A stretch of DNA of 64,000 bases from an uncultured Clostridia bacterium (GCA_944376905.1 CALWEA010000007.1:168-64167); one strand, 5' to 3'; shown: positions 23,092 to 56,231, numbered from the stretch's first letter. Notes: generated by a model from the letters alone, not told the origin. Made by a program: numbers and translations.

Positions 23092-23141
23092 AAAAACACA
23101 CCTTTCTTTTCTTTTAAGTTTTTTGTTTTAGTTTTATTTTA

Positions 23142-30620: not shown

Positions 30621-30662
30621 TTTTTTAACTTTGCTAATTTTATAATTGATGCTTTATTAATT

Positions 30663-31148: not shown

Positions 31149-31284
31149 AACACAATTCCTTATTTTAATCTAAGAAAAAAAATTATTAAAAATTTTTTAT
31201 TTTTTAATCAATTTTAACAAAACATTAATTTTATATTTTTTTAATTTATGCTTTTATAAGTTTTCAGTTTTTAACTTTTCTAAT

Positions 31285-37205: not shown

Positions 37206-37316
37206 AAATATTAAGATTATCAATAAATTATCTTTAAATTATTTTTGAATAAGTTTGTTTAAATTTTAACAAAATAAAAATAATTATATAAAGTTTAGTG
37301 AGAGGTGGGTATTGTT

Positions 37317-38519: not shown

Positions 38520-41500
38520 ATGGAAAAAGTTAAAAGAAAGATATATGCAGTTTGTGGAAATAATTTTAAAGATGTTAATTTGCTCGCTTTAACTCAAATT
38601 AATCCTTTTGATTTTACAACACAAAATATTATCATTGTTCCAGACCGTTCGTCTTTGGTTATGGAAAAATTGGTTTTCGATACTCTTGCAATAACATCAA
38701 CAATGAATATAAATGTTATGGGTATTTCTCGATTTGCAAAAAATATCTTTAAAGAATTGCAAAAAAAATATAATATCCTATCCAAGAGAGAAAGCGTTTT
38801 GTTAACTAGATGTGCTTTAAAAAATTTGCAAGGCAAATTGCAATCTTTCAATAATGATTTTAATCTTGGTTTATGTGAAGAAGTTTATGAAAATATTGCA
38901 CAGTTAAAATCTAACGAAATTTCGAGTGAACAATTAAGTAACGCCACCAATTTGTTAATTTCTTCGTCATCTGCAAGAGTAAGTGATTTAAAAATTATAA
39001 TGGAAGAATACAATTCTTTATTAGGCGATAAATTAGATGGTAATAAAATGCTTGAATTGTTGGAGCAATACATTCAAAATTCTAATCTTAACTTTGATAA
39101 AGTTAATATATTTTTTTTAAATTATGATGCTTTAACTCAGCAGGGATATTCGCTTTTAAAAGTTTTGGCAAGAACAAACGCAAAAGTTTATGTTGGGGCA
39201 ATAGTGCCAGACGGTGATAAATTACAAAAAAATAAATTTATTTTTGAACATGATATTTTAGATAAGTTAAAAGATTTGGCGAATCAAGAAAATTTTGAAA
39301 TTAATATACTTCGTGCGGGTTGTACATTAAATCCTCAATCTAAACATATAAATTATAATTTATATTCTTTAACTCCAACTGTTTTTCAGCCAATTCAATC
39401 ACAATTAAAACAAAATTATTTGCGTATTAAAGAGTGTTTTTCTCGTGAAGAGGAAATAGAAGACATTGCTCAAAAAATAAATTTTCTTATTAAAACAAAT
39501 AAGTGTAAGTATAAAAATATAGCAGTTGCCTGTTCAAATTTAGAAGCAGATTCTTTATTAATTGAAAAGGTTTTCAATGATTATGACTTTTCATATTTTG
39601 TTGATTCTAGTGAATATTTAAACAACACTCAAACTATCAAATTTTTATTATGTGTTTTGGAAATGTTTGAAAATAATTTTGCACAACAATCAATTGAGCA
39701 ATTTTTAACAAGTTTAATATTGGGTTTGCAAAATCAACATATTAGTGTTGTTTTAGATGTTATTAATACATTTAATATTTATGGTGCAAATTTTTTTAAT
39801 ATTGTTGATTATTTCAATCAATACTTAAAAATAAAAGAAACCAATAAACTTTTTAATTTAGATATTTTTAATGAAATTTATCAAAAAGAAGAAATAATTA
39901 AAAATTTAACTAATATAACAAATAATATTTCAAAATTATATCATATTTTTCAAAATTGTAATGATGTTAGGGGTTATTGTGATTTTGTTAAAAAAGTAAT
40001 AGATATTTTCAATTTATTTGAGCAGAATCAATTAATTGTAAATAGTTTTGACAATCAACATGAAATAAAACTCCAAAAAATATATGAACAAATTCCTGAT
40101 AAATTATTGGAAATTTTTGAAACTATTAATAATGTTCTTCCTAATGAAACAATTAAATATGAGGAATTTTTAGATTTATTTTCAACTATTGTAGATGAAA
40201 TTAAAATTTCAACTGTTCCAATATCTTCAAATGCTATTTTTGTTGGTGATGCAACTGATAGTTTTTTTGAAAATTGTCAATATTTATTTGTCTGTGGTGC
40301 GAATGAAGGAAGTTTGCCGAGATTTTTAAATGATAATGGTATTTTATCAGATGATATATTAAATGAAATTAAATGTGTTGCATCAATTAGTCCAACAATT
40401 AAGATGATAAATAGAAGAAATAGGTTTAAAACTCTTAATTTACTTCAAAATGCCGAAAAAGGTTTATTTGTTTCTTATTCACTTGCTGATGGCGAAGGAA
40501 AAAAACTTTTGCCAAGTAGTTTTGTTGTTTCGCTTAAAAAAATGTTTAATGTTCAAATTGAGAATAGTCTCGTTGACAATGTTTTGTCCTTTGAAAAAAG
40601 TAAAAACATAAAAAAGGATAAAAATAATTTAGAAAATAATTTAAAACTTTGTTCGAATAATAGTGTAAGCAATATATCAAAAAACATATTAAAAAATAAC
40701 GGAAATAAAGAGATAAGCGAAACAAGTGGTGATTTTGCAAGCAATATTAGCAATAGTTTTTTTGATGATAAAACTATTCAAAAATTTGCTATTTTTCTAG
40801 GAAACAAAAATCGAGCAAAACATGAATTTTTGAAAACAACATTTCAGCAAAATTACCAAGAGGCTGTTTTGTATAATTCTTTGTTTTATGCCATCGACAA
40901 AGATATAAAAAATTTTGATTATTTTAATAATTATAATTTAACTTGCAATAAAGAAAATTTATTTTTTACAAATAAAAAAATAACTGTTTCGCAAATTGAA
41001 ACTTATTTAAGTTGTCCTTTTAGAAATTATGCTAATTATGGTCTTAAAATAAAAGAAATTGAAAATTTTGAATTAGCACCAAAAGACATAGGAATTATCT
41101 TGCACAAAATAACAAAAATATTTTTAACCCCAAAAAATAATTATATAGAAAACATAAATTTATTTTTGAAAAAGAACAATATTAATTTAGATAAAAATCT
41201 AAATACCGAAGAAGAAAAGATTTTAGATATAAAAATAAATGAAATAGTTGATTTTATTTTAAAAAAGATAAGTGAAACAACTGAATTTTATAAATTGAAG
41301 ATTCCTGAAAATAAAAGTGTTGTTATGCTTTTGAAAAATGAAATTGTGAGATTGTTGAAATTTTTATACTACTCTCAATCAATTTCTCTTTTCAAACCAA
41401 CATATTTAGAAGAATATTTTGGTTCAATAAATTTTCCTGCGTATGAATTTGATGTAGACAACAAAACTTTTAAATTAGTTGGAATTTTTGATAGAGTTGA

Positions 41501-42101
41501 TATCTACAAAAATATGTTTATTGTTATTGATTACAAATCTGGGGGCTCGGCTAATGGTGGATATTCTGAAATTTTTTATGGAAACAAAATTCAAATTTTT
41601 ATATATTTAAAAGTATTATCAAAAATTTTAGGGAAAAAGCCTTGTGGTGCATTTTACTTTCCAATTAAAAATCAATATGATGACAAAAGTGTTAAAAATT
41701 ACATGTTAAAAGGTAAAATGATTAAGGACAACTCGTTTATACATGCAATGGACACCTCTTTGAGTTTTGATAATCCAAATAGTAAAATATTCGGCGTTAA
41801 GGTTAGTACTGCTAAAAAGAATATTGAAAAAAATGAAATAGTTTATAATGCTTCGTCAACGGCGGTTGATGATTATGTTTTAAATAATTGTATGAATTAT
41901 TCTTTTAAATTGCTAGAAGAGGTTTTGCTGGAAATTTTACAAGGTAATATTATTCCAAATCCAATCAAAGATGTTTGTGATTATTGTTCCTTTAAAGGTT
42001 TTTGTGGGTTTAATAAAAATATTGTGCCAAGAGAATTTATATATGAAAATAGTGAGATAAAAAAAGAAATTTTTGAAAATGATAAAATTGATTTTGAATA
42101 A
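38520..42101 (+). CDS. addB: ATP-dependent helicase/nuclease AddAB, subunit B
   Basis: The protein is 1193 aa and lies immediately upstream of addA. The C-terminal RecB-type nuclease region has the Fe-S cysteines (LSCPFRNYANYG ... CDYCSFKGFC) and FIVIDYKSG. It carries Asn-rich inserts. Confidence 0.85.
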   Translation: MEKVKRKIYAVCGNNFKDVNLLALTQINPFDFTTQNIIIVPDRSSLVMEKLVFDTLAITSTMNINVMGISRFAKNIFKELQKKYNILSKRESVLLTRCALKNLQGKLQSFNNDFNLGLCEEVYENIAQLKSNEISSEQLSNATNLLISSSSARVSDLKIIMEEYNSLLGDKLDGNKMLELLEQYIQNSNLNFDKVNIFFLNYDALTQQGYSLLKVLARTNAKVYVGAIVPDGDKLQKNKFIFEHDILDKLKDLANQENFEINILRAGCTLNPQSKHINYNLYSLTPTVFQPIQSQLKQNYLRIKECFSREEEIEDIAQKINFLIKTNKCKYKNIAVACSNLEADSLLIEKVFNDYDFSYFVDSSEYLNNTQTIKFLLCVLEMFENNFAQQSIEQFLTSLILGLQNQHISVVLDVINTFNIYGANFFNIVDYFNQYLKIKETNKLFNLDIFNEIYQKEEIIKNLTNITNNISKLYHIFQNCNDVRGYCDFVKKVIDIFNLFEQNQLIVNSFDNQHEIKLQKIYEQIPDKLLEIFETINNVLPNETIKYEEFLDLFSTIVDEIKISTVPISSNAIFVGDATDSFFENCQYLFVCGANEGSLPRFLNDNGILSDDILNEIKCVASISPTIKMINRRNRFKTLNLLQNAEKGLFVSYSLADGEGKKLLPSSFVVSLKKMFNVQIENSLVDNVLSFEKSKNIKKDKNNLENNLKLCSNNSVSNISKNILKNNGNKEISETSGDFASNISNSFFDDKTIQKFAIFLGNKNRAKHEFLKTTFQQNYQEAVLYNSLFYAIDKDIKNFDYFNNYNLTCNKENLFFTNKKITVSQIETYLSCPFRNYANYGLKIKEIENFELAPKDIGIILHKITKIFLTPKNNYIENINLFLKKNNINLDKNLNTEEEKILDIKINEIVDFILKKISETTEFYKLKIPENKSVVMLLKNEIVRLLKFLYYSQSISLFKPTYLEEYFGSINFPAYEFDVDNKTFKLVGIFDRVDIYKNMFIVIDYKSGGSANGGYSEIFYGNKIQIFIYLKVLSKILGKKPCGAFYFPIKNQYDDKSVKNYMLKGKMIKDNSFIHAMDTSLSFDNPNSKIFGVKVSTAKKNIEKNEIVYNASSTAVDDYVLNNCMNYSFKLLEEVLLEILQGNIIPNPIKDVCDYCSFKGFCGFNKNIVPREFIYENSEIKKEIFENDKIDFE

Positions 42102-42167
42102 ATTAATATTTTAAAAACAATTTGTAAAATTATAATATAATTGATTTATTTTATATGGAGAATAAAA

Positions 42168-45100
42168 ATGCAGAAAAAACAATTTCCATTCCAGCCTGAG
42201 CAAATTAAAGTTTTAAATAGTGAAGGTAAAAATGTTATTGTTTCTGCTTCGGCGGGAAGTGGAAAAACAACAGTTTTAATTCAAAAACTTATTAAATTAA
42301 TAACCGAAAAAAATGTTAGCGTTAAAAAATTGTTGGTTTTAACTTATACCAAAGCATCGGCAGAAGAAATGAAACAAAAGTTGATAGACGCACTTTATGA
42401 AAATGCTATTGATAATCCCAAACTTTTGGAGCAAATAGATGATGTCGCTGTTTCTGATATATCAACAATACATAGTTTTTTTCAAAGATTAATTAAACGC
42501 TATTTTATGGTTTTAAAAATAAATCCTGCTTTTAGTGTGATGGAAGAACAAGAGTCGGAAATTTTAAAAAGTCAGGCTATAAAAAATATTTTAAACGATT
42601 TTTCAAAAACAAATCCTTATTATTTGGAAAAACTGTTAGATTATTATGGCAAGACAAGAAGTCATAAAACAATTAAAAAACTTTTAGATAAAATAAATAT
42701 TTTTTTAGGAGCAGTTGATGATGTTGAAGAATTTTATAATCATACATCAACTTTGTTTTGTTGTGAAAATTTAAATAAAAATTTGGCTGTTTTTTTTGTT
42801 AATAAAGAATTGTGTGAGATGATTGATTATTTTAAAACAGAATTTTTGAAATTAAATAAAGAGGCTCAGTTTATAGATAGTAAGGAATATTTTGAATATA
42901 CAAACAAAATTTTGGCAATTCTTTCTCAAATAAAAATGACAACAAAAGAAAAAGTTTATTTTAAAAATTATTTAGAGAATTTAAATGATAATGTAGATAA
43001 TAACGATGAAGTTGACGAAATTCCATCTACAACATTTTTCAAAAATTATCAAATATTAATTTCTTCTAAATTCCCTAACTTGAATCAACCAAAATCTAAC
43101 TCAAAAGTTTGTCAATATCAATCACAAAATAATGTGTTAAAAAATGGATTACAAGACATTTTAAAAGAAAATTTGCCGGATAATTCACAAGATAAAGTAA
43201 AGAATGAATTAAAAGATAGATTGAAAAACGATAATTGCCAAGAGGAATTTGACAAAAACTTAAATTTGTATATAAAATTAAATGAGGTTAAAACTAAATT
43301 TGCAAAAGAAAAAACAAATTATTTAGATTGTGATTATAATGAAGAAAATGTCTTACAATCAATAAAAGATATAAAAGAAACAATAAAAATTCTACTTGAA
43401 TTAAACCAAAGTTATGAAAAAGAATATTTGAAATTGAAACAAAGGAAAAATGTTGTTGATTTTAATGACTTAGAAAAATACGCATTACTTCTTTTAAAAA
43501 ATTCTAGCATATGTAGCGAATTACAAAATCAATATAAATATATTTTTGTTGACGAATATCAAGATGCGAACTATTTACAAGAAAAAATACTTTCTTTAAT
43601 TTCTTCTAATAATAATAGATTTATGGTTGGAGATGTTAAACAGAGTATTTACGGTTTTCGTCAAGCGGAACCTGATATTTTTCTTAATCTTGAAGAAAAG
43701 TTTAAAACCGACCCCAACAGTGAAGCCCTTACATTAAATTCAAATTTTAGAAGTAATAAAAATATACTAAATTTTGTTAATTTAGTTTTTTCGGAAATCA
43801 TGACTCAAAAAACCGCTAAACTTGATTACAAGATTTCTTCTTGTTTAATACCAAAAGCAAAATACAAAGATGTTTTGTCTAACAGTTTTAAAAATGTTGA
43901 ACTTAATATTATTAAAATTCCGGAAAATATTGAAAAACCTAAACCACCAAAACTTTATAGTGTGCAAAACATAAAAAGTGAATATTTGTATAATTTTGAA
44001 CCCGCAGAATTGGAAGCACGCTTGGTTGCAAAGAAAATTAGCGAATTAGTTGGACAAAAAATTTATGATGTTAAATTAAAACAGGAAAGAGAAATTCAAT
44101 TTAAAGATATTTGTATGCTTTTGAACTCAAGAGGAGAATATCTTGATAAATTTTGTAGCGTTTTAAATAAATTTGGTATTCCCATTTATGCAAACACAAA
44201 TTCTTCTCTTTTTGAAGATGAGGAAATTAAAATTTTTCTTAGTTTGTTAAAATTAAGTGTTTCTCAATTAGATGATATTTCTTATGTAACTGTTCTGCAT
44301 AGTATTTTTGGAGAATTAACTTACAATGAAATTGCAATTTTAAAAATAATATTTCCTAAATGTAATAGTGTTTATGAAATTATTAATAAATTCTTAAACG
44401 ACCAAAATATAATTAAATTTTTAAATTGTTTTAGTGATGGTGAGAATTGTAAAGAAACTTTTGAAAAAGATTTAAATAGTTTTGCAACTAATTTAAAGGA
44501 AACATTATCAAATAATAATTTTAGCGTTATTGAATTAAAAAAATTATATCAAAAAGTTAAAAACTTCACAAAATTTTTAGATAATTTTATTAAAAAATTA
44601 AAATTTAATGGGGTATACTTGACTTTAAATAAAATAATTAATGATTTTGATTATTTTTCTTATTTATATCAACGAAGTGATGGAATTGAGAAAGTTGCCA
44701 AAATTAAAAAATTTGTTGAAAATTTTGTTAATAACTCCTATAACTTTGATATTGTTGGATTTTTAAATTTTGTTGAAAATTCACCTAATTTAGTTCGTGC
44801 GCCAAATTATATAAGCGGTGATAATTGTGTTAGTATAACAACAATTCATTCAAGTAAAGGCTTGGAATATCCAATTGTTTTTCTAATAAATTGTGGGGGT
44901 AATTTTTATGGAAAACAGCGTGATGGCGACATAGAATTAAATACTAATTTTGGTATTGCATTAAAACGATTTGATAAAAATAATAGAAGTAAAAATATGT
45001 CTATAATATTTGATGCTATGCAAAAAATAAATAAAAATGATGTATTTGCGGAAAAATTACGTCTTTTGTATGTTGCTTTAACTCGTGCTCAAAACCATTT

Positions 45101-46001
45101 ATTTATAGTAGGTTCAACTAAAAAATTTTTTAAGAAATTGTATTCCAATTTTCAAATAAAAAGTTGTTCATCGTTTTTAGATTTAATAATTGGTTCATTA
45201 AGCGAAAAAGAAATTTTAGAAATTAATAATTTCTTTTTACTACAATCTAATAAATCTTGTATTTTTAATAATTTAAAAAACTATTCTATTAATTGCTATT
45301 TTGCAGAAAATTTTATTGATAATGTTAATAATGTAAAGACAAAAGCAGTAGGGAAATTTGACATTGGCATTGTTGATTATTTAAAAAGTTATTTCAATAA
45401 AGATTTGCCACAAAAAACAAATGTTGCATTAAAAAATTCTGTAACATCTTTATCTAGTGTTGATGATGAATTTTATACGAGTTATAATCCTCAGCCCAAA
45501 TTGTTAAAAATAGAAGAACATAATGTTAAAAAAATAAATGAAATAGGAACAGATTATCATGAAATTTTAGAAATTATTCCTTTTGATGAAATACATACTT
45601 GTCTAGATGTTGAAAATTTTATAATAAAAAATAATTTAAACAAAACCCTTGACGTTAAAAAAATTTTTGAATGTATTAAATTGATAAAATCTTTTCAATA
45701 TAAAAACATGCTTAAAGAACAAAAATTTATGATGTATGTTCCCCATAAAGATATTATTGAAAATGGTTCAAGAGAAAAAATATTAATACAAGGAGTTATT
45801 GACCTTGTATTATTAGGTAAAAAAAATGTTCTTATAGATTATAAATATACTTTAACAAAAAATCGCGAAACTTTAATAAATAGATATAAAATGCAGTTAA
45901 AATTATATAAAAAGGCAGTTGAGGAATCTTTAAATATTAGTATAAATGAGGTTTATCTTCTACTAATATATTCTGCTGAACTTGTTAAAGTTGATTTGTA
46001 A
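42168..46001 (+). CDS. addA: ATP-dependent helicase/nuclease AddAB, subunit A (UvrD/Rep-type helicase plus nuclease)
   Basis: VSASAGSGKTTVL (Walker A), FVDEYQDAN, TIHSSKGLEYPIVF, LLYVALTRA and the C-terminal nuclease GVIDLV..IDYKY are present. ATG 42168 follows tggag. The track ORF starts at TTG 42141. Confidence 0.9.
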   Translation: MQKKQFPFQPEQIKVLNSEGKNVIVSASAGSGKTTVLIQKLIKLITEKNVSVKKLLVLTYTKASAEEMKQKLIDALYENAIDNPKLLEQIDDVAVSDISTIHSFFQRLIKRYFMVLKINPAFSVMEEQESEILKSQAIKNILNDFSKTNPYYLEKLLDYYGKTRSHKTIKKLLDKINIFLGAVDDVEEFYNHTSTLFCCENLNKNLAVFFVNKELCEMIDYFKTEFLKLNKEAQFIDSKEYFEYTNKILAILSQIKMTTKEKVYFKNYLENLNDNVDNNDEVDEIPSTTFFKNYQILISSKFPNLNQPKSNSKVCQYQSQNNVLKNGLQDILKENLPDNSQDKVKNELKDRLKNDNCQEEFDKNLNLYIKLNEVKTKFAKEKTNYLDCDYNEENVLQSIKDIKETIKILLELNQSYEKEYLKLKQRKNVVDFNDLEKYALLLLKNSSICSELQNQYKYIFVDEYQDANYLQEKILSLISSNNNRFMVGDVKQSIYGFRQAEPDIFLNLEEKFKTDPNSEALTLNSNFRSNKNILNFVNLVFSEIMTQKTAKLDYKISSCLIPKAKYKDVLSNSFKNVELNIIKIPENIEKPKPPKLYSVQNIKSEYLYNFEPAELEARLVAKKISELVGQKIYDVKLKQEREIQFKDICMLLNSRGEYLDKFCSVLNKFGIPIYANTNSSLFEDEEIKIFLSLLKLSVSQLDDISYVTVLHSIFGELTYNEIAILKIIFPKCNSVYEIINKFLNDQNIIKFLNCFSDGENCKETFEKDLNSFATNLKETLSNNNFSVIELKKLYQKVKNFTKFLDNFIKKLKFNGVYLTLNKIINDFDYFSYLYQRSDGIEKVAKIKKFVENFVNNSYNFDIVGFLNFVENSPNLVRAPNYISGDNCVSITTIHSSKGLEYPIVFLINCGGNFYGKQRDGDIELNTNFGIALKRFDKNNRSKNMSIIFDAMQKINKNDVFAEKLRLLYVALTRAQNHLFIVGSTKKFFKKLYSNFQIKSCSSFLDLIIGSLSEKEILEINNFFLLQSNKSCIFNNLKNYSINCYFAENFIDNVNNVKTKAVGKFDIGIVDYLKSYFNKDLPQKTNVALKNSVTSLSSVDDEFYTSYNPQPKLLKIEEHNVKKINEIGTDYHEILEIIPFDEIHTCLDVENFIIKNNLNKTLDVKKIFECIKLIKSFQYKNMLKEQKFMMYVPHKDIIENGSREKILIQGVIDLVLLGKKNVLIDYKYTLTKNRETLINRYKMQLKLYKKAVEESLNISINEVYLLLIYSAELVKVDL

Positions 46002-46033
46002 AAACTATGACTTAAATCATAGTTTTTATTTTT
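46001..46033 (+). terminator. addA terminator
   Basis: A perfect 10-bp stem aaaactatga/tcatagtttt has a 6-nt loop and a T-rich tail. Confidence 0.75.
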
Positions 46034-46660
46034 TATAAGTTTTATTAAAAATTTTATTTTATAGTTAAAATGTTTTTTTAAAATAGTATAAAATAAAAAA
46101 AATTATATTAATAGATGATAAGGATTAAATTTATATTAAAAAATTCTTTATTTTTATAAAAATTTTGCTTATTCAATTGTTAGTGATTTTATAAAGAATA
46201 AATAAAAAACAAAAACAATAAATTAAAAAATAAAATATTTAATAAAATAATATTTTTTAAGAAGCAATTGATTATATGCAACTAGTTAAAGATAACTTGT
46301 AAAAACATCAAATTATGTTTTATTATGTTTAAAATAAAATTTAAAAAATAAAAAAATTAAAAAATTTAAAAAAAAATAATTAGCAAATTAAATAAATGTT
46401 TATAAAATTGTAGAGTTTAAAATAATTAAAACAAAAAAATATAATCATTTTATAAAGAATATATAACTAAAAAAATAATAAAAAAACTAAAAAAATAATA
46501 AAAAAAATAATAAAAAAAATAAAATTAAAAAAAATTATAAAAAAATTATAAAAAAATTGTCAAAAAATAAAAAAAATTGTTAAAAATTGTAAAAAACATT
46601 AGTTATTTTAAAAAGTATGTGATATACTAATATTGATTTATTATTAAGGAGAATTGTTTT

Positions 46661-49600
46661 ATGATTGTAACCGAAATTCAAAACTTTTTAAACCAGTTAA
46701 TGTTAAGTATTGATTGGGACGTCTTATTTTTTATAGGGGTTGGATTTGAAATTTTGTTTGCCTTATTCTTTATTGTTAAATCCCATTATGCTTACGAGAT
46801 GCGACTTGTTCGAAAATTGTCAGTTCTTAATACTTGGTTAAGTAGAAACCAGTATATCGACTCCAACAATTTGTTGGCTTTTAATGAATTAATGAAGTCA
46901 ACGCCTAAACAGTTGCGTCATTATTGGCATCAATATATGCTTTATAGAGAAAAAGAACCTAGTTTTTATATGAGTGATTATAATTGTATTGAAAAACCTT
47001 TGAAAACAAGTTCTTTTGCTTCAAACATTAAAAATTTTAGTGCTATTAGTTATTCCTTTGCTTTTTTTATGTTTGTTTTTGGTATAGCGGCGTTAGCGTC
47101 TGACCCTTTTCAGTTTTCTTTGTTTGCAAAAGCGTTAATAACTCCGGTTATAATTATTATTTTAAACACAATTTTTGTTATGATTTTGCGGGCTCGTGAG
47201 AACATGAATCTTGCGACATTATATCAATATTTTCATTATTTTAATAGATTTTTAGATAAAGCTGTTACAACAATGCCTGAATATGTTGATTTTGAAGTTT
47301 TATTTACTCGTCAAGAAATTAGAAAAGGTATACCTGTTCTTAATGAATATTTGGAAAAAAGGGCTCGTCAGGAACAAGAAGAATTAGAAAAAGCACGTCT
47401 TTATGCTGTTGAACACGAACAATACGACTTTAACGATGCAGGAATTGATGGTGCGCTGGTTTTAGATAGAGCAATGAAAGAAACTGAAACATATTTAAAT
47501 ATAAGACAGCGTTTATTATCTGAAATTGAACAATTCGAAAGTGAAATAGATAGTTTGAAACGAAACTATGAAAATACACAAAAAGAATATCAAAAGAAAT
47601 TACAAGCAAGTAAAGAAAATGTTGAAAGATTGCGTCAACAACAAGAAGAAAGTACAAACCGTATTGAAACAAATTACATAAAAAAACAACAGTCTGATGA
47701 AATCAAAAAGCAAGAACAACTTGAAAAAGACCATGATACTGCAACTATTCGTTTCAATCAAGAAATGGAAAGTTTAACCCAAGAAATTGAAACTCGTCGT
47801 GCCGACCTTGCTGAGCGTAAACAATATGTCGAAGATGCTATGCGTGCTGAATATCAAACATTTTCTTCAAAAATGTATAAAAGTGTTGTTGCCGTTGTCG
47901 AAGAAAGAGTTAACGAAGAAAAACAAACTTTGGTTGATATGAAAGATGAAATTGCCAAAGAACTTGAAGAGGCTAATTTAGTTATCTCTGAAAAGAATAA
48001 AGAAATTGCCGGGCTTAGAAACCTTGCCAAAAAACATAAAATAGATACATCAAGTGTTGATGGTTTTTATAGTGAAACTTTGGAAAAAGAGGCAAAAAAA
48101 CTACGCCGAGGACGACATAATTTATCTGTTGATGATGATTTTGAAGAAAATATTACAGAACAATCATTGCAACAAAATGTAGACGAAAACAGTCAAATAG
48201 ATGAAAATAATCAAAGTCAAGTTGAAAGTAAAGACGAAATACTAGAAAATCCTAGTGGTTCAAATGATGCTAATTTAGATGAAAATATTGTCGATATAGA
48301 TAATAGTGTTGTGCAGGAAAATAGTTTAGAAAACTTAAATGAAGAAAATGTATCACAAAACGAAGAAAATAATTTAAATAATAATGAAAATGTTGCAGAA
48401 GTTGTAGACAGTGACAAATTAAACAAGTCATTAGACGCTGACAATCAATTAAAAACGGAAAATTCTTCTGTTCAAAATAATAGTCAAGACAGTCAAGAGT
48501 TTGAAAAAGTTTATGATGAAAACGGTTGTTATTATGATGAAAAAGGCAACTATATATATCCTAATGGTGCTTATTATGACCCAGAAGGTTGTTATCATGA
48601 TGAATTAGGTGGTTGGTTTGAGGCAGATGGAAAAACTTATCATGCTCCTGATGAAAATTCTCAACAAGTAACAAAAAATAATAATGAATCTGGAGAAGAT
48701 GAAACAGGGCAAGTGTTTACACCTGTTTATGATGAAAATGGCTGTTATTATGATGAAAAAGGCAACTATATATACCCTAATGGTGCTTATTATGACCCAG
48801 AAGGTTGTTATCATGATGAATTAGGTGGTTGGTTTGAGGCAGATGGAAAAACTTATCATGCTCCTGATGAGAAGAAAACAAAAATTGAATATGACAATCT
48901 TGATGATAAAACTAAATTTGCACTTGCAGAAAATTTTGGTATTAAATCCGACCCAAATAAAGAAGAAAAAGATAAAATAAAAGAGCAAAAAGAGCATAAA
49001 AAACTTGCTCGTGAAGAACAGAAAAAATTAAGAAAAGAAGAAAAAATTGCCCGCAAAATTGCAAAACTTGAAGAAAAAAATAAATTAAAACAAGAAAGTC
49101 CTAATTCTTTGGAATTACAAGATGCAAATGTGCAAAATAGTGAATTGACTTCAATGACAGAAGAAAAAGAAAGTGCTGAAAATCAAGAATTACAAGAAAG
49201 TAAATTTGATAATAATTTGAATCAAAATACTAATTCTTTAAATGAAAATCAAGAAACTAAATTAAATGATATTGATGAAAAATTAAAAATTGACAATTTA
49301 GATAAAGATGTTGATGACTTGCAAAATTTAAATAATAATGAAATTAATTTTGATGATTTTAATTTTGATTTTGACGATTTAGATTTGCCTAATGAAGAAA
49401 ATTTAAAAACTAATGAAGAAGAACATATTACAACTGATGAAGATTTAAAACAATTAGAACAGCAGGTTGAAGAATTAACTCAACAGCCAAATGTTGAAAA
49501 TAAAGAAAATTTAAATAGTGAAAATAAAGTAGTGCCTGTTGCAAAAAAACGAGGTCGACCAAAAAAAGTTCAAACACCAGAAAATAATCAAGATAATAAA

Positions 49601-50161
49601 GAAAATGATTTATCAAGTGCTGAACAAGTTGAACCAGTCGTAAAGAAAAGACCGGGCCGTCCTAGAAAAGATGAGTCTTTGGGCGCTGAAAAACCTAAAA
49701 AACTGGTTGGTCGCCCTAAAAAAGTATTAACCGAAGAAGAAAAAGAAAATTTAAATAAACCTAAAAGACCGGGACGTCCTAGAAAAGATAAGTCTTTGGA
49801 CGCTGAAAAAACTAAAAAGCCGGTTGGTCGCCCTAAAAAAGTTTTAACCGAAGAAGAAAAAGAAAATTTAAATAAACCTAAAAGACCGGTTGGCCGTCCT
49901 AGAAAAAATTCTTCAACTTCTTCCAATAATTCAACTTCTAAATCTCCTAAAAAAGTTGGAAGACCTCGTAAAAACTCGGAACAAACAACTGAGCCAACTG
50001 TGAAAAGAGGTAGAGGGCGTCCTAAAAAAGTTGATATTGACGAAATTCAAAAACTTAACGAACAAATAGAAAATGAAAACAAGCGTTTAAAACAACGTCA
50101 AAAAGAACTTAAATCTCAATTAGACGAAACTTTGTCGATATTACAAGATGAATTAGATTAA
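46661..50161 (+). CDS. 1166-aa protein: three N-terminal hydrophobic segments, a long coiled coil, an acidic low-complexity region, a duplicated Cys/Tyr/Gly module, and eight C-terminal AT-hook-like GRP motifs
   Basis: Hydrophobic stretches: VLFFIGVGFEILFALFFIV, FSAISYSFAFFMFVFGIAALA, ALITPVIIIILNTIFVMIL. A heptad-like E/K/Q-rich region spans about residues 230-470. The C-terminus carries KKRGRPKKV, KKRPGRPRKD, LVGRPKKV, KRPGRPRKD, PVGRPKKV, RPVGRPRKN, KVGRPRKN and RGRGRPKKV. The RBS is aaggag. Confidence 0.7.
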   Translation: MIVTEIQNFLNQLMLSIDWDVLFFIGVGFEILFALFFIVKSHYAYEMRLVRKLSVLNTWLSRNQYIDSNNLLAFNELMKSTPKQLRHYWHQYMLYREKEPSFYMSDYNCIEKPLKTSSFASNIKNFSAISYSFAFFMFVFGIAALASDPFQFSLFAKALITPVIIIILNTIFVMILRARENMNLATLYQYFHYFNRFLDKAVTTMPEYVDFEVLFTRQEIRKGIPVLNEYLEKRARQEQEELEKARLYAVEHEQYDFNDAGIDGALVLDRAMKETETYLNIRQRLLSEIEQFESEIDSLKRNYENTQKEYQKKLQASKENVERLRQQQEESTNRIETNYIKKQQSDEIKKQEQLEKDHDTATIRFNQEMESLTQEIETRRADLAERKQYVEDAMRAEYQTFSSKMYKSVVAVVEERVNEEKQTLVDMKDEIAKELEEANLVISEKNKEIAGLRNLAKKHKIDTSSVDGFYSETLEKEAKKLRRGRHNLSVDDDFEENITEQSLQQNVDENSQIDENNQSQVESKDEILENPSGSNDANLDENIVDIDNSVVQENSLENLNEENVSQNEENNLNNNENVAEVVDSDKLNKSLDADNQLKTENSSVQNNSQDSQEFEKVYDENGCYYDEKGNYIYPNGAYYDPEGCYHDELGGWFEADGKTYHAPDENSQQVTKNNNESGEDETGQVFTPVYDENGCYYDEKGNYIYPNGAYYDPEGCYHDELGGWFEADGKTYHAPDEKKTKIEYDNLDDKTKFALAENFGIKSDPNKEEKDKIKEQKEHKKLAREEQKKLRKEEKIARKIAKLEEKNKLKQESPNSLELQDANVQNSELTSMTEEKESAENQELQESKFDNNLNQNTNSLNENQETKLNDIDEKLKIDNLDKDVDDLQNLNNNEINFDDFNFDFDDLDLPNEENLKTNEEEHITTDEDLKQLEQQVEELTQQPNVENKENLNSENKVVPVAKKRGRPKKVQTPENNQDNKENDLSSAEQVEPVVKKRPGRPRKDESLGAEKPKKLVGRPKKVLTEEEKENLNKPKRPGRPRKDKSLDAEKTKKPVGRPKKVLTEEEKENLNKPKRPVGRPRKNSSTSSNNSTSKSPKKVGRPRKNSEQTTEPTVKRGRGRPKKVDIDEIQKLNEQIENENKRLKQRQKELKSQLDETLSILQDELD
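48509..48870 (+). repeat. Two near-identical 146-bp copies (48509..48654 and 48725..48870), period 216 bp, inside 46661..50161
   Basis: Both encode VYDENGCYYDEKGNYIYPNGAYYDPEGCYHDELGGWFEADGKTYHAPDE. I see only about 4 nucleotide differences. Confidence 0.9.
49646..49910 (+). repeat. About 2.3 copies of a 117-bp in-frame repeat encoding paired AT-hook motifs
   Basis: Copies start at 49646, 49763 and 49880. The unit encodes KRPGRPRKD(E/K)SL(G/D)AEK(P/T)KK(L/P)VGRPKKVLTEEEKENLNKP. Confidence 0.9.
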
Positions 50162-50764: not shown

Positions 50765-53700
50765 ATGAAAACAAATCTATTTGCTTGGAGTTATGTTAAG
50801 GGATATAAAATAGACTTTATGTTGGCTCTTGTTTGTGCTGGCTTTGCTGTTATTTTTGGATTAATACTTCCGCAAATTACACAAATGTTTATTGACAGTA
50901 TATTAGATTATTCTCAAACTTCTTTGCAAAAAATAAGTCCATTTTGGTTTTGGTTGTTAGAACTTTTTACCAATATAACTTTTACGAATTTAATTGTTTT
51001 ACTGTGTATTGTTTTTGTTGTTTTTGCATTTTTAAAAAATTTATTTGAATTTCTTAAAAGTCAAAAATTATATAAATGTGGTGCAGGGGCAACTGGATTA
51101 ATGCGTGCAGATTGTTTTAAAAAACTTGCGCATTTAAATAATTACACTCAAAAAAGTGAGACCTATGTTCATTTTACTAATGATATCTCTGATTTTTATG
51201 ATTTAATAGTTAAAACATATCCTAAAATTTTTATATCAATTTTAACTATTGTGTTGGCTTTGATTCTTATTTTTTTTATTAATATTAAAATTGGATTCGT
51301 TTTAATTTTGCTAATTCCAATAATTTTTTTGACGGGTATTATAAATTTAAAAAAGATGAAATCAAATTTTAATGATATTCGTGAAAAAAAGTCAAAAATG
51401 CAAGATGTTGCTGAAAATGCTGTTAATCAAATTCGAGAAATTAAAATTTTTAATAGAGAAAAGTTAATAGAAGATAGATATCTAGAAGTTAATACTGAGC
51501 ATATTAATTCAAGTTTAAAAGCATTTAACCATTATAATAAAACTATCTTTTGGAGTGATTTAATAAAAGCAGTTGGTATGGCAACTACGCTTATCTTATC
51601 TGCTGTTTTGTGTTTTAAAGGTTTAATTAGTGTTGGATATTTTGTGTTGTTATCGACATATTCTTTCACGGTTTTAAATGCATCTTCTCAACTCTTACTT
51701 GCTTTTCTTGATGGAACACAACAATTAACAAGAATAGAAAAAGTTAGAAAATTTTTAAATCTACGCAGTGAATTTAAAGATGGTAAACAAACAATAAGTT
51801 CTCAAACTCCTAATTTGTTTTTAAACAAAATTACAGTTGTTCTTGATGGTAGGACAATTTTTAAAAATTTATCTGCCGAATTTTTGTTTGGGAAACATTA
51901 TGCCGTTTTTTTAAGTCAAGGTGAAGGAAAATCTGCTCTGGCGAAATTGTTATTAAAGTTTTTTGAGCCGAATGAAGGAACAATAACAATTGATAACATT
52001 GATTATCAAAATTGTGATGTTTATAGTTTAAGAAAGCATTTTTCTTATGTGTCACAAGAACCTTATATTTTTGAAACAAGTTTTTTAAACAATATCATAA
52101 TGTTTGAAAATTTAGATGAAAAAAAACTTCAAATTGCAATAGAAATTTGCGGATTAAAAAAAATAATAAACAAATTTGAGGGTGGGTTAGATTATATTTT
52201 TACTGAAAAGGGAGCGGAATTGTCTTCTCAGGACAAACAAAAAATAAACTTGGCTCGTGCTATTTATAAAAATGCACCTATTTTGTTAATAGATTCTTCT
52301 TTTAACAAATTTACCAATAACGATTCTGCTCAATTAATTACAAAAATTTTTGAGTTTTACAAAGATAGAACGGTTATTATTTTAAGTGATAGATGGGTTG
52401 ATTTTGAACAATGTGAAAAAATTTTTATTATCGAAAATGGAAAGTTAATTAAAAGGCATCATTCACGGGATTTTATTGAGAATAAAATAAAAGAAAACGA
52501 AAAATTAAACTTGGACAGTAAATCAAAGATTATAAATTCTCAAATAAAAAGAATGAAAGATAAAATAAAATCATTTATTAATAAACAAACAAATAAAATA
52601 GACAAAGAATGTGTAACTAAAAAATCTACCAAATTTATTGTTTTTCAATGTGAATCGAAAAAAGATGCAAAACAATTAAAAATAAATAATATCCAAGAAA
52701 ATAAATTTTTAAATTCAGTTTATTATTCAAAAGATATATTAAATCAAAATAAAAACCCAAATCAACAATCTAATAATCAAAATAGTTTACAAAATATTTC
52801 GACAAAACAAAATAAAGAGATGGTTTTGAAAGAAAATACAATCCAAATTAATCCAAATGAAGCAACAGGCGAAAATGAAAAAGGCAATGATGTAAATGGC
52901 ATAAAAGCAGAAAAAGCGGATTGCAAGACGAAAATAAAAAAAAATTATTGGTATTTTCAAAAAAATAATAATATAATAAAAGAATTTGATGGATTACCTA
53001 CAAATAAAGAACAATCGCTAAGTAATATATTTAATAAAAATACAAAATTTAATACGCTAAATTTTAATGATGAAAACTCTAATATGAGTAGTGAGTTCTT
53101 TAATCAATTACATCTTAAAAAGTTAAAGTGTAAAAACAATAATTGTTTGAAGAAAAAAAATAATAATAATCTTTCAGTATCTTTAAATTTTATTAAAAAA
53201 AACAATAATAAAAAAAATTTTAAATTTATTAATGTTGGCAATGAAGAAAATTTAATAAATAATTTTGATGCATTAAAAAATTTGAATTTATTAAACGTTG
53301 TTGTTGGAAAAAGGTCTTATAATTTTGCAAGAAAATTACAGTATATGAACGCTATTGATAATGCGATTAACGATGGATTTGTTTGGCCTGATACAAGTAA
53401 TATAAGAAAAAATCAAAAAACATTTTTATTTAAAACTTATAAAAATGCAAAAAATTTTATTATAACTATTAATGGTTTTGAAAAAAGTCGACAAGATAAA
53501 AGAAAAGAAATAAAAAAACAAAAAGATATTGCCAATGATGTTGAAGATGTATCAAATAATGTCGTTATTCCCAATACTACGAATGATAATATAAAAGTAG
53601 ATAAAACGTTTAATATAGATAATTTAAATTTTTGCAAAAAAAAATATAAAAAGAAAAGTAAAGTCAGTAAATTAAAACAAAATTTACTTTTAAAGGCAAT

Positions 53701-54523
53701 AAACAACAAATTTGCAAAAATTAATTGTAATAATTTGGTTAGTGGTAAAGAGAAAATATTAAGCAGGAAAATTATAAAAAACATTCAAGATTACAGAGTG
53801 TTGAAATTTTTTAAACTAACGGATAATGCGCACGAATATAAATGTTTACGTGGGAAAGTTAAAAACGGGTTAAATGACACTATAAAATATTACAGTTATT
53901 TTGATATTCTCTTACAAACTGAAAGGCAAATTTTAAGTAATAAAAAACACAAATATAACTTTATATGCCTAAAAGAAAAGGTGAACGACAGAAAAACAAG
54001 GATTATAAAAAATACTTGCTTAAATAAATCTATTTCTTTTGCACCTTATCAAACTTTAAATAAATATCCTAAATTAAAAAAAATTAATTTACTAATTACT
54101 AACAATATTGACAATTTAATAGGAATGTGTATAGAAAAATTTATTTCTTCTAAAAATTTAAAAAACGATTTGTTAAAAAATAATATAGTTGAAGATTATA
54201 GTGAAAAAAAATTGGATATGAAATCTAAAATAATTAAAAAAGCAGAAAAAAAGAATGATAAAGTAGTGAATTCATTGTTGAATGAAGTAAAAAATAGTGA
54301 TTTAGACAAAATATCATTAGAACAATATCCAGTAATTTTTGATGGTGTAAGTAATGTTTTAATAGATGTTTGGGAACAACGAAAATATTATTATTGTAAG
54401 CAACGTGCGTTAAAATTAAAACAAGAAATGAGAAAATTAAATATGCAAAATAATAGTTGTGATAAAATAATTGAACAAGAAATTAATCAAGATAAACGAG
54501 ATAAAAAAGACAATGGAAAATAA
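50765..54523 (+). CDS. ABC exporter half-transporter (TMD-NBD, about 570 aa) with deviant ATPase motifs, fused to a Lys/Asn-rich C-terminal extension of about 680 aa
   Basis: A six-helix-type TMD is followed by the NBD. Walker A is LSQGEGKSA, the signature is LSSQD (canonical LSGGQ), Walker B is ILLIDS (catalytic Glu replaced by Ser), and the H-loop is LSDR (no His). A long basic low-complexity tail follows with no domain I can recognise. Confidence 0.7.
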   Translation: MKTNLFAWSYVKGYKIDFMLALVCAGFAVIFGLILPQITQMFIDSILDYSQTSLQKISPFWFWLLELFTNITFTNLIVLLCIVFVVFAFLKNLFEFLKSQKLYKCGAGATGLMRADCFKKLAHLNNYTQKSETYVHFTNDISDFYDLIVKTYPKIFISILTIVLALILIFFINIKIGFVLILLIPIIFLTGIINLKKMKSNFNDIREKKSKMQDVAENAVNQIREIKIFNREKLIEDRYLEVNTEHINSSLKAFNHYNKTIFWSDLIKAVGMATTLILSAVLCFKGLISVGYFVLLSTYSFTVLNASSQLLLAFLDGTQQLTRIEKVRKFLNLRSEFKDGKQTISSQTPNLFLNKITVVLDGRTIFKNLSAEFLFGKHYAVFLSQGEGKSALAKLLLKFFEPNEGTITIDNIDYQNCDVYSLRKHFSYVSQEPYIFETSFLNNIIMFENLDEKKLQIAIEICGLKKIINKFEGGLDYIFTEKGAELSSQDKQKINLARAIYKNAPILLIDSSFNKFTNNDSAQLITKIFEFYKDRTVIILSDRWVDFEQCEKIFIIENGKLIKRHHSRDFIENKIKENEKLNLDSKSKIINSQIKRMKDKIKSFINKQTNKIDKECVTKKSTKFIVFQCESKKDAKQLKINNIQENKFLNSVYYSKDILNQNKNPNQQSNNQNSLQNISTKQNKEMVLKENTIQINPNEATGENEKGNDVNGIKAEKADCKTKIKKNYWYFQKNNNIIKEFDGLPTNKEQSLSNIFNKNTKFNTLNFNDENSNMSSEFFNQLHLKKLKCKNNNCLKKKNNNNLSVSLNFIKKNNNKKNFKFINVGNEENLINNFDALKNLNLLNVVVGKRSYNFARKLQYMNAIDNAINDGFVWPDTSNIRKNQKTFLFKTYKNAKNFIITINGFEKSRQDKRKEIKKQKDIANDVEDVSNNVVIPNTTNDNIKVDKTFNIDNLNFCKKKYKKKSKVSKLKQNLLLKAINNKFAKINCNNLVSGKEKILSRKIIKNIQDYRVLKFFKLTDNAHEYKCLRGKVKNGLNDTIKYYSYFDILLQTERQILSNKKHKYNFICLKEKVNDRKTRIIKNTCLNKSISFAPYQTLNKYPKLKKINLLITNNIDNLIGMCIEKFISSKNLKNDLLKNNIVEDYSEKKLDMKSKIIKKAEKKNDKVVNSLLNEVKNSDLDKISLEQYPVIFDGVSNVLIDVWEQRKYYYCKQRALKLKQEMRKLNMQNNSCDKIIEQEINQDKRDKKDNGK

Positions 54524-54572: not shown

Positions 54573-56231
54573 ATGAATAAAAAATTGCTTTCTTATTTGC
54601 TACAAGACAAACGTTTTGTTTTTGCAACTTTTTTATTAATACTCGCTTCAACTGTTTTTGCACAACTTATTCCTTATATTCAAGGTCTATTAGTTGACAA
54701 TGCATTAATTAATTCTAATTATGACATTCTCATTGAATTATCAATTATTGTTTTATCATTATTAATTCTTGATGTTGTTTGTAAACTATTTTTAAATTTA
54801 GTTATGTTTGATTTTGGAAATATAACCGCCAAAAATATTAATAAAGATGTATTTTCTGCAATTATAAATAAGCCTTATGATTTTTTTGAAACAAAAAGTA
54901 AGGGAGATATTCTATACAGAACAAACACTTATATTTATGATATAGGAACATATATTTCAAAAGATATAAGTTCTTTTGCCATAGGAATAGCGCGAGTTTT
55001 TGTTATTTTTGTTTTTCTTTTTATTCTTCAACCAGTTTTTGCTCTTTGTTTAGTGGGACTTTATATAATAATTTTTTTCACAATAATTTTTATAGGTCCT
55101 AAAATAATGAAAGGGGCAAAGCAAACAAAAAATAAAGAACTTTATAGAAATGCGGTTATACTTCAAAATATAGAAGGAATGGAAACTTTTCTAGCATATA
55201 GCACAGGAAATAAAAACTTAGGATTTTATTCAGTTGCCAATGAAGCCTATGATAAAGAAAGAAAAAGTTTTTATAGAAGATATAATTTCTTCTTTTCCTT
55301 GATAGATTTTTTGGTTTGTATGGGAGCGGTTATTATTTATATTATTGCCTTTTCTCAATCTGTTAGTGTTTTAGAAATTGGTGTTATTGTTGCAGTTTTA
55401 TCCTACACATCTAGTTTTGTAACTCCAATGAAAGATGTTGCAATGGGACTTGCAAACATTTTTGACAATTCTGCGACATTAACAGAAGTTTTCGAATTTT
55501 TAAAGATTAATCAAAAAGAAGAAATCCAAACAAACACATCTTTTAAATTTAGTGAAATTCAAATTAACTGCAAAAATGTTTTTTATAAAAGTTTAAAAAA
55601 CAATATAGAAATAAATAATTTAAATTTAGAAATAAACGCAAAAGATAAAATTTTAATATATGGTGTTTATGGGATTGGTAAAAGCAGTTTCGTTGATTTG
55701 CTCTGTGGCTTAATAAAACCAGACAAAGGAAAAATATTTTTTAACACTTACAATATTAATTCTATTAATCATGAAGATTTGTCGAAAATGATTTCTGTAA
55801 CAAGCGACAATGTTGGAGTTTTTAATGCGAGTGTTTTTGATAATGTTAAATTTGCAAAAGTTAATGCAACCAATGAAGAGGTTATTGAAGCAATAACAAT
55901 CTCTGGACTTTCAAAAGTTCTTTCTTATTCGGGAAGAAATTATAATTGGATTGTAAGTGAGGAAATAATGTCGGAAGGCGATAAACAATTTCTTTCATTG
56001 GCACGCGTTGTTTTAAGAAATCCACCTGTTGTTATTGTTGATGAGGCGATTCGCGATTTGTCGGAAAACAGAAAAAGATTATTTTTGGAATCTTTAAAAA
56101 AGTTTACAGAAAATAAAACATTAATTTTTATAACAGAAGAAATTCCTGAAAATACTAAATTTGAAAAAATCTATAATTTTGAAGAATTAAACAAAAAAAA
56201 TAAACAATTAAACAATATATACTTAAAATAA
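54573..56231 (+). CDS. ABC exporter half-transporter (TMD-NBD), partner of 50765..54523
   Basis: Walker A is GVYGIGKSS, Walker B is VVIVDEA, the signature is MSEGD, and the H-loop position reads ITEE. The RBS is ggagg. It starts 49 nt after the upstream stop. Confidence 0.8.
   Translation: MNKKLLSYLLQDKRFVFATFLLILASTVFAQLIPYIQGLLVDNALINSNYDILIELSIIVLSLLILDVVCKLFLNLVMFDFGNITAKNINKDVFSAIINKPYDFFETKSKGDILYRTNTYIYDIGTYISKDISSFAIGIARVFVIFVFLFILQPVFALCLVGLYIIIFFTIIFIGPKIMKGAKQTKNKELYRNAVILQNIEGMETFLAYSTGNKNLGFYSVANEAYDKERKSFYRRYNFFFSLIDFLVCMGAVIIYIIAFSQSVSVLEIGVIVAVLSYTSSFVTPMKDVAMGLANIFDNSATLTEVFEFLKINQKEEIQTNTSFKFSEIQINCKNVFYKSLKNNIEINNLNLEINAKDKILIYGVYGIGKSSFVDLLCGLIKPDKGKIFFNTYNINSINHEDLSKMISVTSDNVGVFNASVFDNVKFAKVNATNEEVIEAITISGLSKVLSYSGRNYNWIVSEEIMSEGDKQFLSLARVVLRNPPVVIVDEAIRDLSENRKRLFLESLKKFTENKTLIFITEEIPENTKFEKIYNFEELNKKNKQLNNIYLK

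Follow-up and report, generated by a model that had tools for sequence, protein, structure and literature searches.

The gene described here, termed X, is an open reading frame (ORF) of 1166 amino acids (aa) with an ATG start (46661..50161, + strand, from the ORF listing), located in a stretch of 64,000 nucleotides (nt) from an uncultured Clostridia bacterium (GCA_944376905.1 CALWEA010000007.1:168-64167) that is henceforth called the window. Its product would be a membrane-embedded, probably multimeric anchor that tethers A/T-rich DNA via AT-hooks and works with the helicase-nuclease AddAB, a reading to which we give somewhat better than even chances. The whole analysis of X was computational, and features of the protein were checked by script on the translated ORF. 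From the N- to the C-terminus, X comprises three transmembrane (TM) helices, a helical stalk, acidic spacers, a module rich in Tyr, Gly, and Asp in two copies, eight AT-hooks, and a terminal coiled coil; a ribosome-binding site read from the sequence (AAGGAG, 46646..46651, + strand) lies 9 nt 5' of the ATG. The window is very AT-rich (~18-32% GC per 2 kb).

The predicted DNA-binding part of X is the array at aa 956-1125 (49526..50035, + strand; motif script and Pfam AT_hook), which has a net charge of +30 and holds eight hooks spaced 18-34 aa apart. The G-R-P cores are located at aa 965, 999, 1017, 1038, 1056, 1078, 1100, and 1119, each with Lys/Arg flanks on both sides and with R, V, P, or G as the preceding residue. 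An R-G-R-P core with K/R flanks is a specific minor-groove DNA motif. Based on the composition of X, 0.056 GRP motifs would be expected, and eight were reached in none of 20,000 shuffles (maximum 2). Pfam AT_hook (PF02178, SMART SM00384; Pfam gathering threshold 17.4 bits) matched the last 219 residues (aa 948-1166) in five stretches at 38.6 bits and an E-value of 4.6e-10, and the whole protein at 17.3 bits, i.e., just below the threshold. A preliminary description of this DNA had counted eight GRP hooks and proposed a comparison with the Pfam AT-hook model; the count of cores and the score of the tail against the cut-off both agree with it. It had also taken the GC-rich GRP codons as a sign of selection, which was not upheld: CGN codons are used in seven of the eight hooks, but the preference is gene-wide (CGN share of Arg codons 62% across X vs 36% in the other window ORFs), and a hook-specific excess is absent. 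Codons for Gly, Arg, and Pro are GC-rich by necessity of the genetic code, and the codon argument is weak because the GC content of the hook codons is largely forced in this way and the CGN bias extends over the entire gene. An antisense ORF across the array (49588-49926, - strand, 112 aa) with ‘FLGRPT...’ repeats was rejected as a gene, being the mirror image of the hooks; its apparent homologues cluster in 40 related loci for the sole reason that the hooks are conserved.

Homologues of X were retrieved with a word-indexed search of 5.8 billion proteins, which yielded 787 sequences at E<=1e-3; none had a functional name, and the few named by their source were each a ‘hypothetical protein’ from Clostridia metagenome-assembled genomes. 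A profile of the first 460 residues, used for an exhaustive HMMER search, returned 337 clusters at 50% identity; 168 of these had E-values below 1e-30, and the matches did not extend into any known family. Scanning the GTDB with one genome per species placed X in 109 species representatives, all of them uncultured Clostridia (Christensenellales, ‘Christensenella sp. UBA...’, or Candidatus Caccopulliclostridium, the latter placed by NCBI in Clostridia incertae sedis), and the carriers amount to more than 100 uncultured gut and rumen species. No match was obtained for the whole protein against NCBIfam, for the whole protein and aa 1-280 against the PADLOC defence models, for aa 1-213, 1-500, and 741-947 against Pfam, for X against phage and plasmid collections (tblastn), or for the X model against the viral fold library BFVD, and cluster look-ups for relatives gave no source names. 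Based on the 109 GTDB species and the lack of a phage, plasmid, or viral-fold match, X appears to be a chromosomal, vertically inherited gene. Literature searches on AT-hooks together with addAB, on membrane-anchored AT-hook proteins, and on membrane proteins of addAB operons returned no description of the X family, which is unnamed, lineage-restricted, and previously undescribed. Its parts, i.e., AT-hook, ExbB/ZorA-type fold, and coiled coil, are known; for their combination, its restriction to uncultured Clostridia, and the fixed place behind addBA, which appear to be new, no description was found.

Within the family, residues 40-127 and 177-460 are strongly conserved (40-76% identity, dozens of invariant positions), and the spacers vary freely. 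Of the 120 closest homologues, almost all share the number and positions of the three TM helices and carry 3-13 C-terminal GRP hooks at distances of ~19-21 residues. A logo of 432 hooks from related loci reads K-P-K-(K/R)-K-R-G-R-P-(R/K)-K, which is the canonical HMGA type, and the R-G-R-P core is strictly retained in these hooks. Among 107 representative clusters (>=600 aa), two or more hooks are present in 42 and hooks are absent from 61, so that ~40% of the clusters at 50% identity carry AT-hooks. Many of the hook-less tails consist of AKKPAAKKPA/PAKK (histone-H1-like), KKSTTKKSTT, or Arg/Ser-rich sequence, with net charges of up to +25 per 60 aa. The recurrent trait is hence a basic disordered C-terminus, the chemistry of which was swapped several times between clades and which is weak in a minority of members. 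Conservation of the GRP motifs in homologues, on which the preliminary description had staked its proposal, extends to nearly all of the 120 closest relatives, and in distant members other basic tails often stand in their place. The core of that proposal, a cytoplasmic AT-binding tail on a membrane anchor, is likewise backed by the topology (see below) and by the hooks of close homologues, and needs amending for distant members, where hooks are often replaced. The number of hooks did not follow the AT content of the genome (correlation with locus GC of 0.00 across related loci).

Positive charge alone is common to hooks, AKKP, KKSTT, and Arg/Ser-rich tails, and Arg/Ser-rich and Lys-rich disordered regions are established as common RNA binders. 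It is therefore conceivable that the ligand of the basic tail is a polyanion other than the chromosome, namely RNA, polyphosphate, or anionic lipid, and that X is a membrane scaffold unrelated to DNA. We consider this highly improbable, given that the K/R-flanked R-G-R-P is specific for the minor groove and strictly kept in 432 hooks, that the conserved neighbour of X is a DNA enzyme, and that an exchange of hooks for H1-like tails has a DNA-binding precedent in CarD. CarD of Myxococcus xanthus is described with an acidic stretch followed by RGRP hooks, and in orthologues of some species an H1-like basic domain that replaces the hooks is reported to be functionally equivalent (PMC4374960, its reference 5). 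CarD thus shares with the X family the HMGA-like tail and the hook-to-H1-like swap among orthologues. It differs in being a soluble, RNA-polymerase-binding transcription factor with four hooks and a Tudor-like CarD_CdnL_TRCF N-domain, whereas X is membrane-embedded and has eight hooks, and Pfam detected no CarD_CdnL_TRCF-type domain in aa 1-500 of X. Because the HMGA-for-H1-like exchange is reportedly without loss of function in CarD orthologues, we regard the tail swap as the best comparative argument that the tail of X binds DNA.

The hook array is also variable at short range. The variation in hook number stems from a tandem repeat of 117 base pairs (bp) with 2.2 copies and 92% matches (49646..49906, + strand; Tandem Repeats Finder, TRF), each unit of which codes for a 39-aa block with two hooks; hooks 2-6 are not independent events since they lie inside this repeat. 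Hook number is labile accordingly: one allele of X at >=99% identity lacks exactly aa 996-1034, i.e., one 39-aa two-hook unit, and has six hooks, and an allele in the same identity range lacks one 72-aa unit of the Tyr/Gly/Asp module. Collapsed repeats in short-read assemblies could mimic such copy-number variation of hooks and modules. The array is followed by a C-terminal amphipathic helix or coiled coil (aa 1126-1166, 50036..50158, + strand; consensus ELxxLNxQIxxENxxLxxQQxELNxQL). This short terminal helix recurs across the family, and a hook-less clade has the short common motif SEIDALNAEMQKLL at its position.

At the other end of the protein, the N-terminal membrane domain (aa 1-262, 46661..47446, + strand) was delimited by AlphaFold2 (AF2), Foldseek, the positive-inside rule, and conservation by region. 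It consists of an external N-tail, TM1 (aa 21-39), a conserved cytoplasmic loop of 88 aa, a TM2-TM3 hairpin (aa 128-146 and 158-176), and membrane-proximal helices; the three hydrophobic segments noticed earlier near the N-terminus were placed by script at these positions. In 124 family members, the TM flanks on the loop-1/C-terminal side hold a mean of 8.8 Lys and Arg residues vs 1.7 on the side of the N-tail and the TM2-TM3 loop, and the former side is richer in 122 of the 124. The positive-inside rule thus assigns the N-terminus to the outside and both the large loop and the C-terminal 990 aa to the cytoplasm, giving a predicted N-out/C-in topology with three TM helices and a cytoplasmic bulk. 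Exposure to the outside is small (~20 aa and an 11-aa loop). A bulk outside the cell, which the preliminary description regarded as fatal to its own proposal, is contradicted by the same count.

The inverse arrangement, in which the C-terminal 990 aa would be outside and bind extracellular DNA or wall polymers with the Tyr/Gly/Asp modules as wall-binding repeats, is extremely improbable to us. Besides the charge distribution in 122 of 124 sequences, the N-terminal sequence shows no apparent signal peptide, the cysteines are not conserved, and the predicted ExbB/ZorA-type fold puts the equivalent regions in the cytoplasm. What recalls choline-binding or clostridial repeats is the core YYDxxG of the module, which matches Pfam Choline_bind_1 at the noise level (E 1.8). 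The module is an exact duplicate (aa 617-665 and 689-737; 48509..48871, + strand), as already noted in the preliminary description for a 49-aa Cys/Tyr/Gly unit. The two 49-aa copies are identical, 143 of their 147 bases are the same, the true repeat unit is 72 aa or 216 bp, and each copy is composed of six heptads of the type Y-Y-D-x-x-G-x. Most homologues have a single copy, which recurs in the closer ones (alignment); the consensus among homologues is YxExGGYYDxxGYYxYxNGTYYDxxGxYHDEFGGxYDxDGNY. Searches of Pfam and the PDB with the module gave no significant match, including to any wall-binding family. Assignments as cell-wall/choline-binding, YD, or WG repeats were rejected, as the matches were at the noise level only, and a match to ADPRTs_Tse2 was rejected as well, as it dropped to E 0.06 with a single copy.

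The modules are embedded in ~500 aa between stalk and hook array, which are mostly acidic disordered spacer. The net charges along this part of X are -27 for aa 481-616, -23 for aa 617-737, +8 for aa 738-810, and -33 for aa 811-955, before the +30 of aa 956-1125. By composition, aa 481-616 (48101..48508, + strand) form an Asn/Glu/Asp-rich disordered spacer that varies in length and sequence among homologues, and a Lys/Glu-rich segment (aa 738-810) is followed by the second acidic spacer (aa 811-955; together 48872..49525, + strand). Both the acidic Asn/Glu/Asp region and the second basic and acidic stretch of the preliminary description were recovered in this way.

Two AF2 models were calculated, one of aa 1-500 (all-helical, predicted local distance difference test (pLDDT) 79.6) and one of aa 1-262 with an alignment of 124 sequences (pLDDT 90.4, predicted template-modelling score (pTM) 0.76; single-chain prediction). 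The succession of a helix, an 88-residue cytoplasmic loop, and a tight hairpin made the ExbB/TolQ/ZorA class suspected, and Foldseek searches of the aa 1-262 model against the PDB returned ZorA of the Zorya type I/II anti-phage system (PDB 8qyd, 8vvn) as the four best matches (E 5e-4 to 1e-3, probability 1.0, TM-score 0.45-0.49). Shewanella ZorA aligned to this model with a TM-score of 0.50 and a root mean square deviation (rmsd) of 6.2 Å, and ZorA was also the best PDB match of the aa 1-500 model. Ranks 1-17 were all A subunits of 5:2 ion-driven motors (ZorA, ExbB, PomA, TolQ), with MotA at rank 24; ExbB, TolQ, and MotA-PomA filled ranks 5-50 almost entirely, with scores weaker than those of ZorA (E 0.17 or worse, TM-score 0.33-0.46). 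The predicted anchor thus bears a coherent but moderate resemblance to the ExbB/ZorA-type fold, and X is not classed as a ZorA or as a motor. ExbB and TolQ have the same topology class as X (N-out, three TM helices, cytoplasmic C-terminus). They differ from X, as do MotA-PomA, in that X has no Pfam MotA_ExbB match and no adjoining ExbD, TolR, or MotB gene; Ton and Tol systems would not be expected in the Gram-positive lineage that hosts X. When PDB sequences were searched with a profile of X, polyQ and low-complexity noise was all that appeared.

The likeness to ZorA raises the question of Zorya-like surveillance, in which X would be a ZorA-type motor or sensor whose tail reports envelope or DNA-entry events and passes invading linear DNA to AddAB in place of ZorC/ZorD. 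AddAB-type helicase-nucleases destroy unprotected linear DNA. Like X, ZorA has three TM helices, a large cytoplasmic TM1-TM2 loop, and a TM3 that runs into cytoplasmic helices and a long helical tail, and the Zorya system ends in DNA binding and a nuclease; X in turn has its own predicted DNA-binding tail and adjoins a helicase-nuclease. Through its long cytoplasmic helical tail, ZorA communicates with a DNA-binding protein and a nuclease (PMC11946911). At the level of sequence there is no similarity, as PADLOC gave no match, and ZorB, ZorC, and ZorD are lacking at the X locus. The helical tail of ZorA measures ~500 aa compared to ~195 aa in X, where a disordered acidic and basic region with AT-hooks follows. 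Pfam scans of 30 other window ORFs (>=120 aa) detected no B-subunit domain (MotB, ExbD, TolR, or ZorB), and no B-subunit gene occurs among conserved neighbours at 83 related loci. In real stators the TM helices form the ion path and the contact to the B subunit, and in ZorA the ion path through the TM hairpin is lined by the polar residues Thr147 and Ser184 (PMC11946911). In X, conservation within the membrane domain is lowest in the TM segments (entropy 2.4-2.75 bits vs 1.4-1.9 bits in the cytoplasmic parts), Pro162 is the sole near-invariant residue of the TM region (95%), and there is no invariant Thr/Ser equivalent to Thr147 or Ser184: Ser/Thr occur at positions 130 and 137 in ~57-60%, and X itself has Met at 137. 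The few externally exposed residues leave no room for a sensor domain, and X behaves like a core gene, present in single copy at a fixed place in the chromosome after addBA, and not like a patchy gene of defence islands, where ZorA resides; tblastn found no copy of X in phage and plasmid collections. A role in Zorya-like surveillance is hence distinctly improbable, and the TM helices of X would seem to act as an anchor instead of an ion path.

A related possibility is that X represents a new branch of the ExbB/TolQ/MotA/ZorA class without a B subunit, i.e., a multimeric membrane hub with a bundled stalk that displays dozens of minor-groove hooks and, as a dedicated partner of AddAB, holds broken or incoming DNA ends or the nucleoid at the membrane. 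In this specific form we deem the idea unlikely, yet less so than a surveillance function. Its stronger version would be that X is still a motor, has an unlinked B subunit, and acts mechanically on DNA.

For the more general anchor, which we favour, the following course of action is envisaged. By analogy with ExbB and ZorA, the anchor would probably oligomerise, possibly as a pentamer, giving ~40 hooks per particle. The hooks would enter the minor groove of A/T tracts, which are near-ubiquitous in a genome of 23-35% GC, and this grip could let the particle retain at the membrane either the nucleoid or a DNA end. The role of the acidic spacers might be to provide flexible reach or, as is the case for HMGA and CarD, to tune binding through intramolecular competition. 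The cytoplasmic stalk (aa 264-458, 47450..48034, + strand) consists of two long helices (aa 264-330 and 334-458) in the AF2 model of aa 1-500, and it shows a hydrophobic period of 3.5-3.65 residues, which would fit a coiled coil or a helical bundle. Of the ~250-aa heptad-like stretch in the preliminary description, the helical stalk with this periodicity was retained and the length was reduced to ~195 aa. Residues 299-360 of the stalk are polar and almost invariant across the family (alignment), and because near-invariant polar residues are unusual for a purely structural coiled coil, they suggest a partner-docking face, for which AddAB would be the obvious candidate.

AddAB was implicated by gene order. 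The gene addB (38520..42101, + strand; AddB N-terminal domain and PD-(D/E)XK nuclease; Pfam, synteny) is the first of the triad addB-addA-X, and addA (42141..46001, + strand; UvrD-type helicase with C-terminal domains; Pfam) is located directly 5' of X, so that the position of X after addAB given in the preliminary description was confirmed. Among related loci with enough upstream sequence, addB-addA precede X directly on the same strand in 64 of 67, and the three loci without this order belong to one small subclade. Clustering of all ORFs of 83 loci showed that besides X only AddA (71 loci) and AddB (64) are widely conserved, and genes 3' of X are common to no more than 16 of the 83. Of the window genes flanking the triad, the upstream one recurs at none of 85 loci and the downstream ABC transporter at two. 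Even the most distant members examined (~30% identity) keep addB-addA-X, with gaps of 95 and 66 bp. A conserved triad amid variable flanks favours functional coupling of X with AddAB without proving it, and the near-constant position of X behind addB and addA makes a repair-related role in tying DNA to the membrane probable. In Bacillus subtilis, addBA are followed by sbcDC; an SbcC/SMC-like identity of X was rejected, as ATPase head domains are absent.

The gap between addA and X has a median of 123 bp in related loci and is unusually long in the window (659 bp). It starts with an AT-rich hairpin (46001..46036, + strand; read from the sequence) with a 10-bp stem (AAAACTATGA / TCATAGTTTT), a 6-nt loop, and a subsequent T-run, which overlaps the last base of the addA stop codon. 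The hairpin is a possible weak terminator; a terminator scan that requires three G-C pairs did not call it. Further downstream, TRF detected an 11-bp A-tract repeat of ~10 copies (46463..46596; units ATAATAAAAAA / AAAAAAATTGT), which may be intrinsically bent because its units are phased with the DNA helical repeat. The repeat may constitute a bent promoter region or a hook-binding site, and as an ideal AT-hook substrate it opens the possibility of autoregulation of X. The 659-bp gap, the hairpin with its T-run, and the A-tract repeat make an own promoter for X in the window probable. A perfect sigma-70 consensus (TTGACA-18 nt-TATAAT) was located inside this AT-rich spacer at 46563..46534 on the minus strand, directed away from X towards addA, and no ORF >=25 aa begins 3' of it. 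SOS control of X was rejected, as GAACN4GTTC sites occur at chance frequency and none is found upstream of addB or X, and Spo0A control was rejected because the addA-X spacer does not contain TGTCGAA. Two exact TGTCGAA sites (Spo0A-box core; 47827-47833 and 47896-47902) lie within the coding sequence of X, 69 bp apart, and the window holds nine such sites vs 4.0 expected, a number reached in 2 of 100 shuffles.

The absence of a Spo0A-box core from the spacer also bears on a function as sporulation anchor, proposed in the preliminary description, by which X would be an analogue of RacA and fix the origin region to the membrane or pole in asymmetric division. Spo0A (13863-14660) and SpoIIE (60859-63237) are both encoded in the window, and the AT-rich organism is therefore probably an endospore former; RacA is absent from Clostridia, as is established. 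As the preliminary description stated, X lies ~20 kb from the rpmH/DnaA-box region: rpmH (25240-25380, - strand) was located next to rnpA-yidD-yidC-jag (22117-25078, - strand), and a DnaA-box cluster with five matches, three perfect and two with one mismatch, at 26215-26367. In addition, a gene that is RsfA/Myb-like by sequence reading precedes addB in 37 of 83 related loci. Nonetheless, AT-hooks lend no origin specificity in a genome of 23% GC, the conserved partner is AddAB and not a division or polarity gene, and X shares no domain with RacA, a soluble protein with a MerR-type helix-turn-helix (HTH) and a coiled coil. Family-wide conservation of addB-addA-X points to DNA-end processing rather than sporulation, and we rate the sporulation anchor as improbable, on a par with the surveillance role.

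The outcome proposed for X, chromosomal DNA held at the membrane, is like that of RacA-DivIVA and Noc of Bacillus and Rv3852 of Mycobacterium, the last of which is described as a nucleoid-associated protein with a TM helix as its anchor (PMC8233713). The means differ: RacA is soluble and sequence-specific, contacts the membrane via DivIVA, and combines its MerR-type HTH with a DivIVA-binding C-terminal coiled coil; Noc has a ParB-type domain and an amphipathic helix; and Rv3852 has a single C-terminal TM helix. None of the three has an ExbB-type anchor, AT-hooks, or an addAB linkage, and Pfam searches of the whole X protein and of fragments detected no HTH or other domain outside the hooks.

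Several points weigh against X as a DNA-tethering anchor that works with AddAB. The fold match is moderate (TM-score 0.45-0.50, E ~5e-4, rmsd 6-14 Å), and neither Pfam MotA_ExbB (PF01618) nor PADLOC ZorA matched aa 1-213 and 1-280 at E<=10. The tails of ~18 members that lack hooks are only weakly basic (net +2 to +5 per 60 aa, one -1), so the tail may not be essential everywhere. A binder of any A/T tract would be saturated by the chromosome, and a role at DNA ends is hard to picture without a partner. The conserved gene order could partly reflect slow genome rearrangement in the lineage, and co-transcription of addA and X in the window is doubtful because of the 659-bp spacer with hairpin and T-run.

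Further observations concern the surroundings of X. The gene before addB in the 37 of 83 related loci mentioned above encodes a Myb/SANT-like protein of ~269 aa with a coiled-coil tail, directly 5' of addB on the same strand (e.g., 1741-2550 in locus L009 and 1313-2131 in locus L079), which resembles the sporulation regulator RsfA by sequence reading alone. It is not present in the window, where this position is taken by a secreted Thr/Ser-rich protein of 223 aa (37305-37976). Genes for transfer-messenger RNA (tmRNA), SmpB, and RNase R are located 13-16 kb 5' of X (29859-33381), and in a distant relative (locus L086, 15280-18355) SecG, RNase R, and SmpB are encoded 4-7 kb 3' of X, which suggests a wider but rearranged regional synteny. 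No dnaA gene adjoins the DnaA-box cluster, and a dCMP deaminase gene (25708-26196) is situated between rpmH and the boxes. Downstream of X, an ABC transporter (50765-54523, + strand) has ABC_membrane and ABC_tran within aa 1-513, then ~700 Asn/Lys-rich aa without Pfam match, and is followed by a paralogue of normal length (54573-56231). On the minus strand (35145-37073), an N-terminal hexapeptide-repeat (GlmU-like) acyltransferase segment is fused to all four phosphoglucomutase/phosphomannomutase domains.

As for the significance of the family, a membrane protein with a ZorA/ExbB-type fold and no B subunit would widen the known uses of this fold, and if the B-subunit-free hub with AddAB were true, it would be the first link of the 5:2-motor fold to housekeeping DNA repair or chromosome organisation. 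The strictly conserved order addB-addA-X suggests a membrane-bound component in double-strand-break processing of these bacteria; we know of nothing of the kind described for AddAB or RecBCD. Because AT-hooks have repeatedly given way to H1-like or Arg/Ser-rich tails and hook units come and go between strains, the family offers a natural experiment in how disordered DNA-binding regions evolve. To our knowledge, chromosome organisation and anchoring in low-GC Clostridia are poorly known, with RacA and many Bacillus nucleoid factors lacking, and the X family is a concrete candidate for chromosome anchoring in these organisms.

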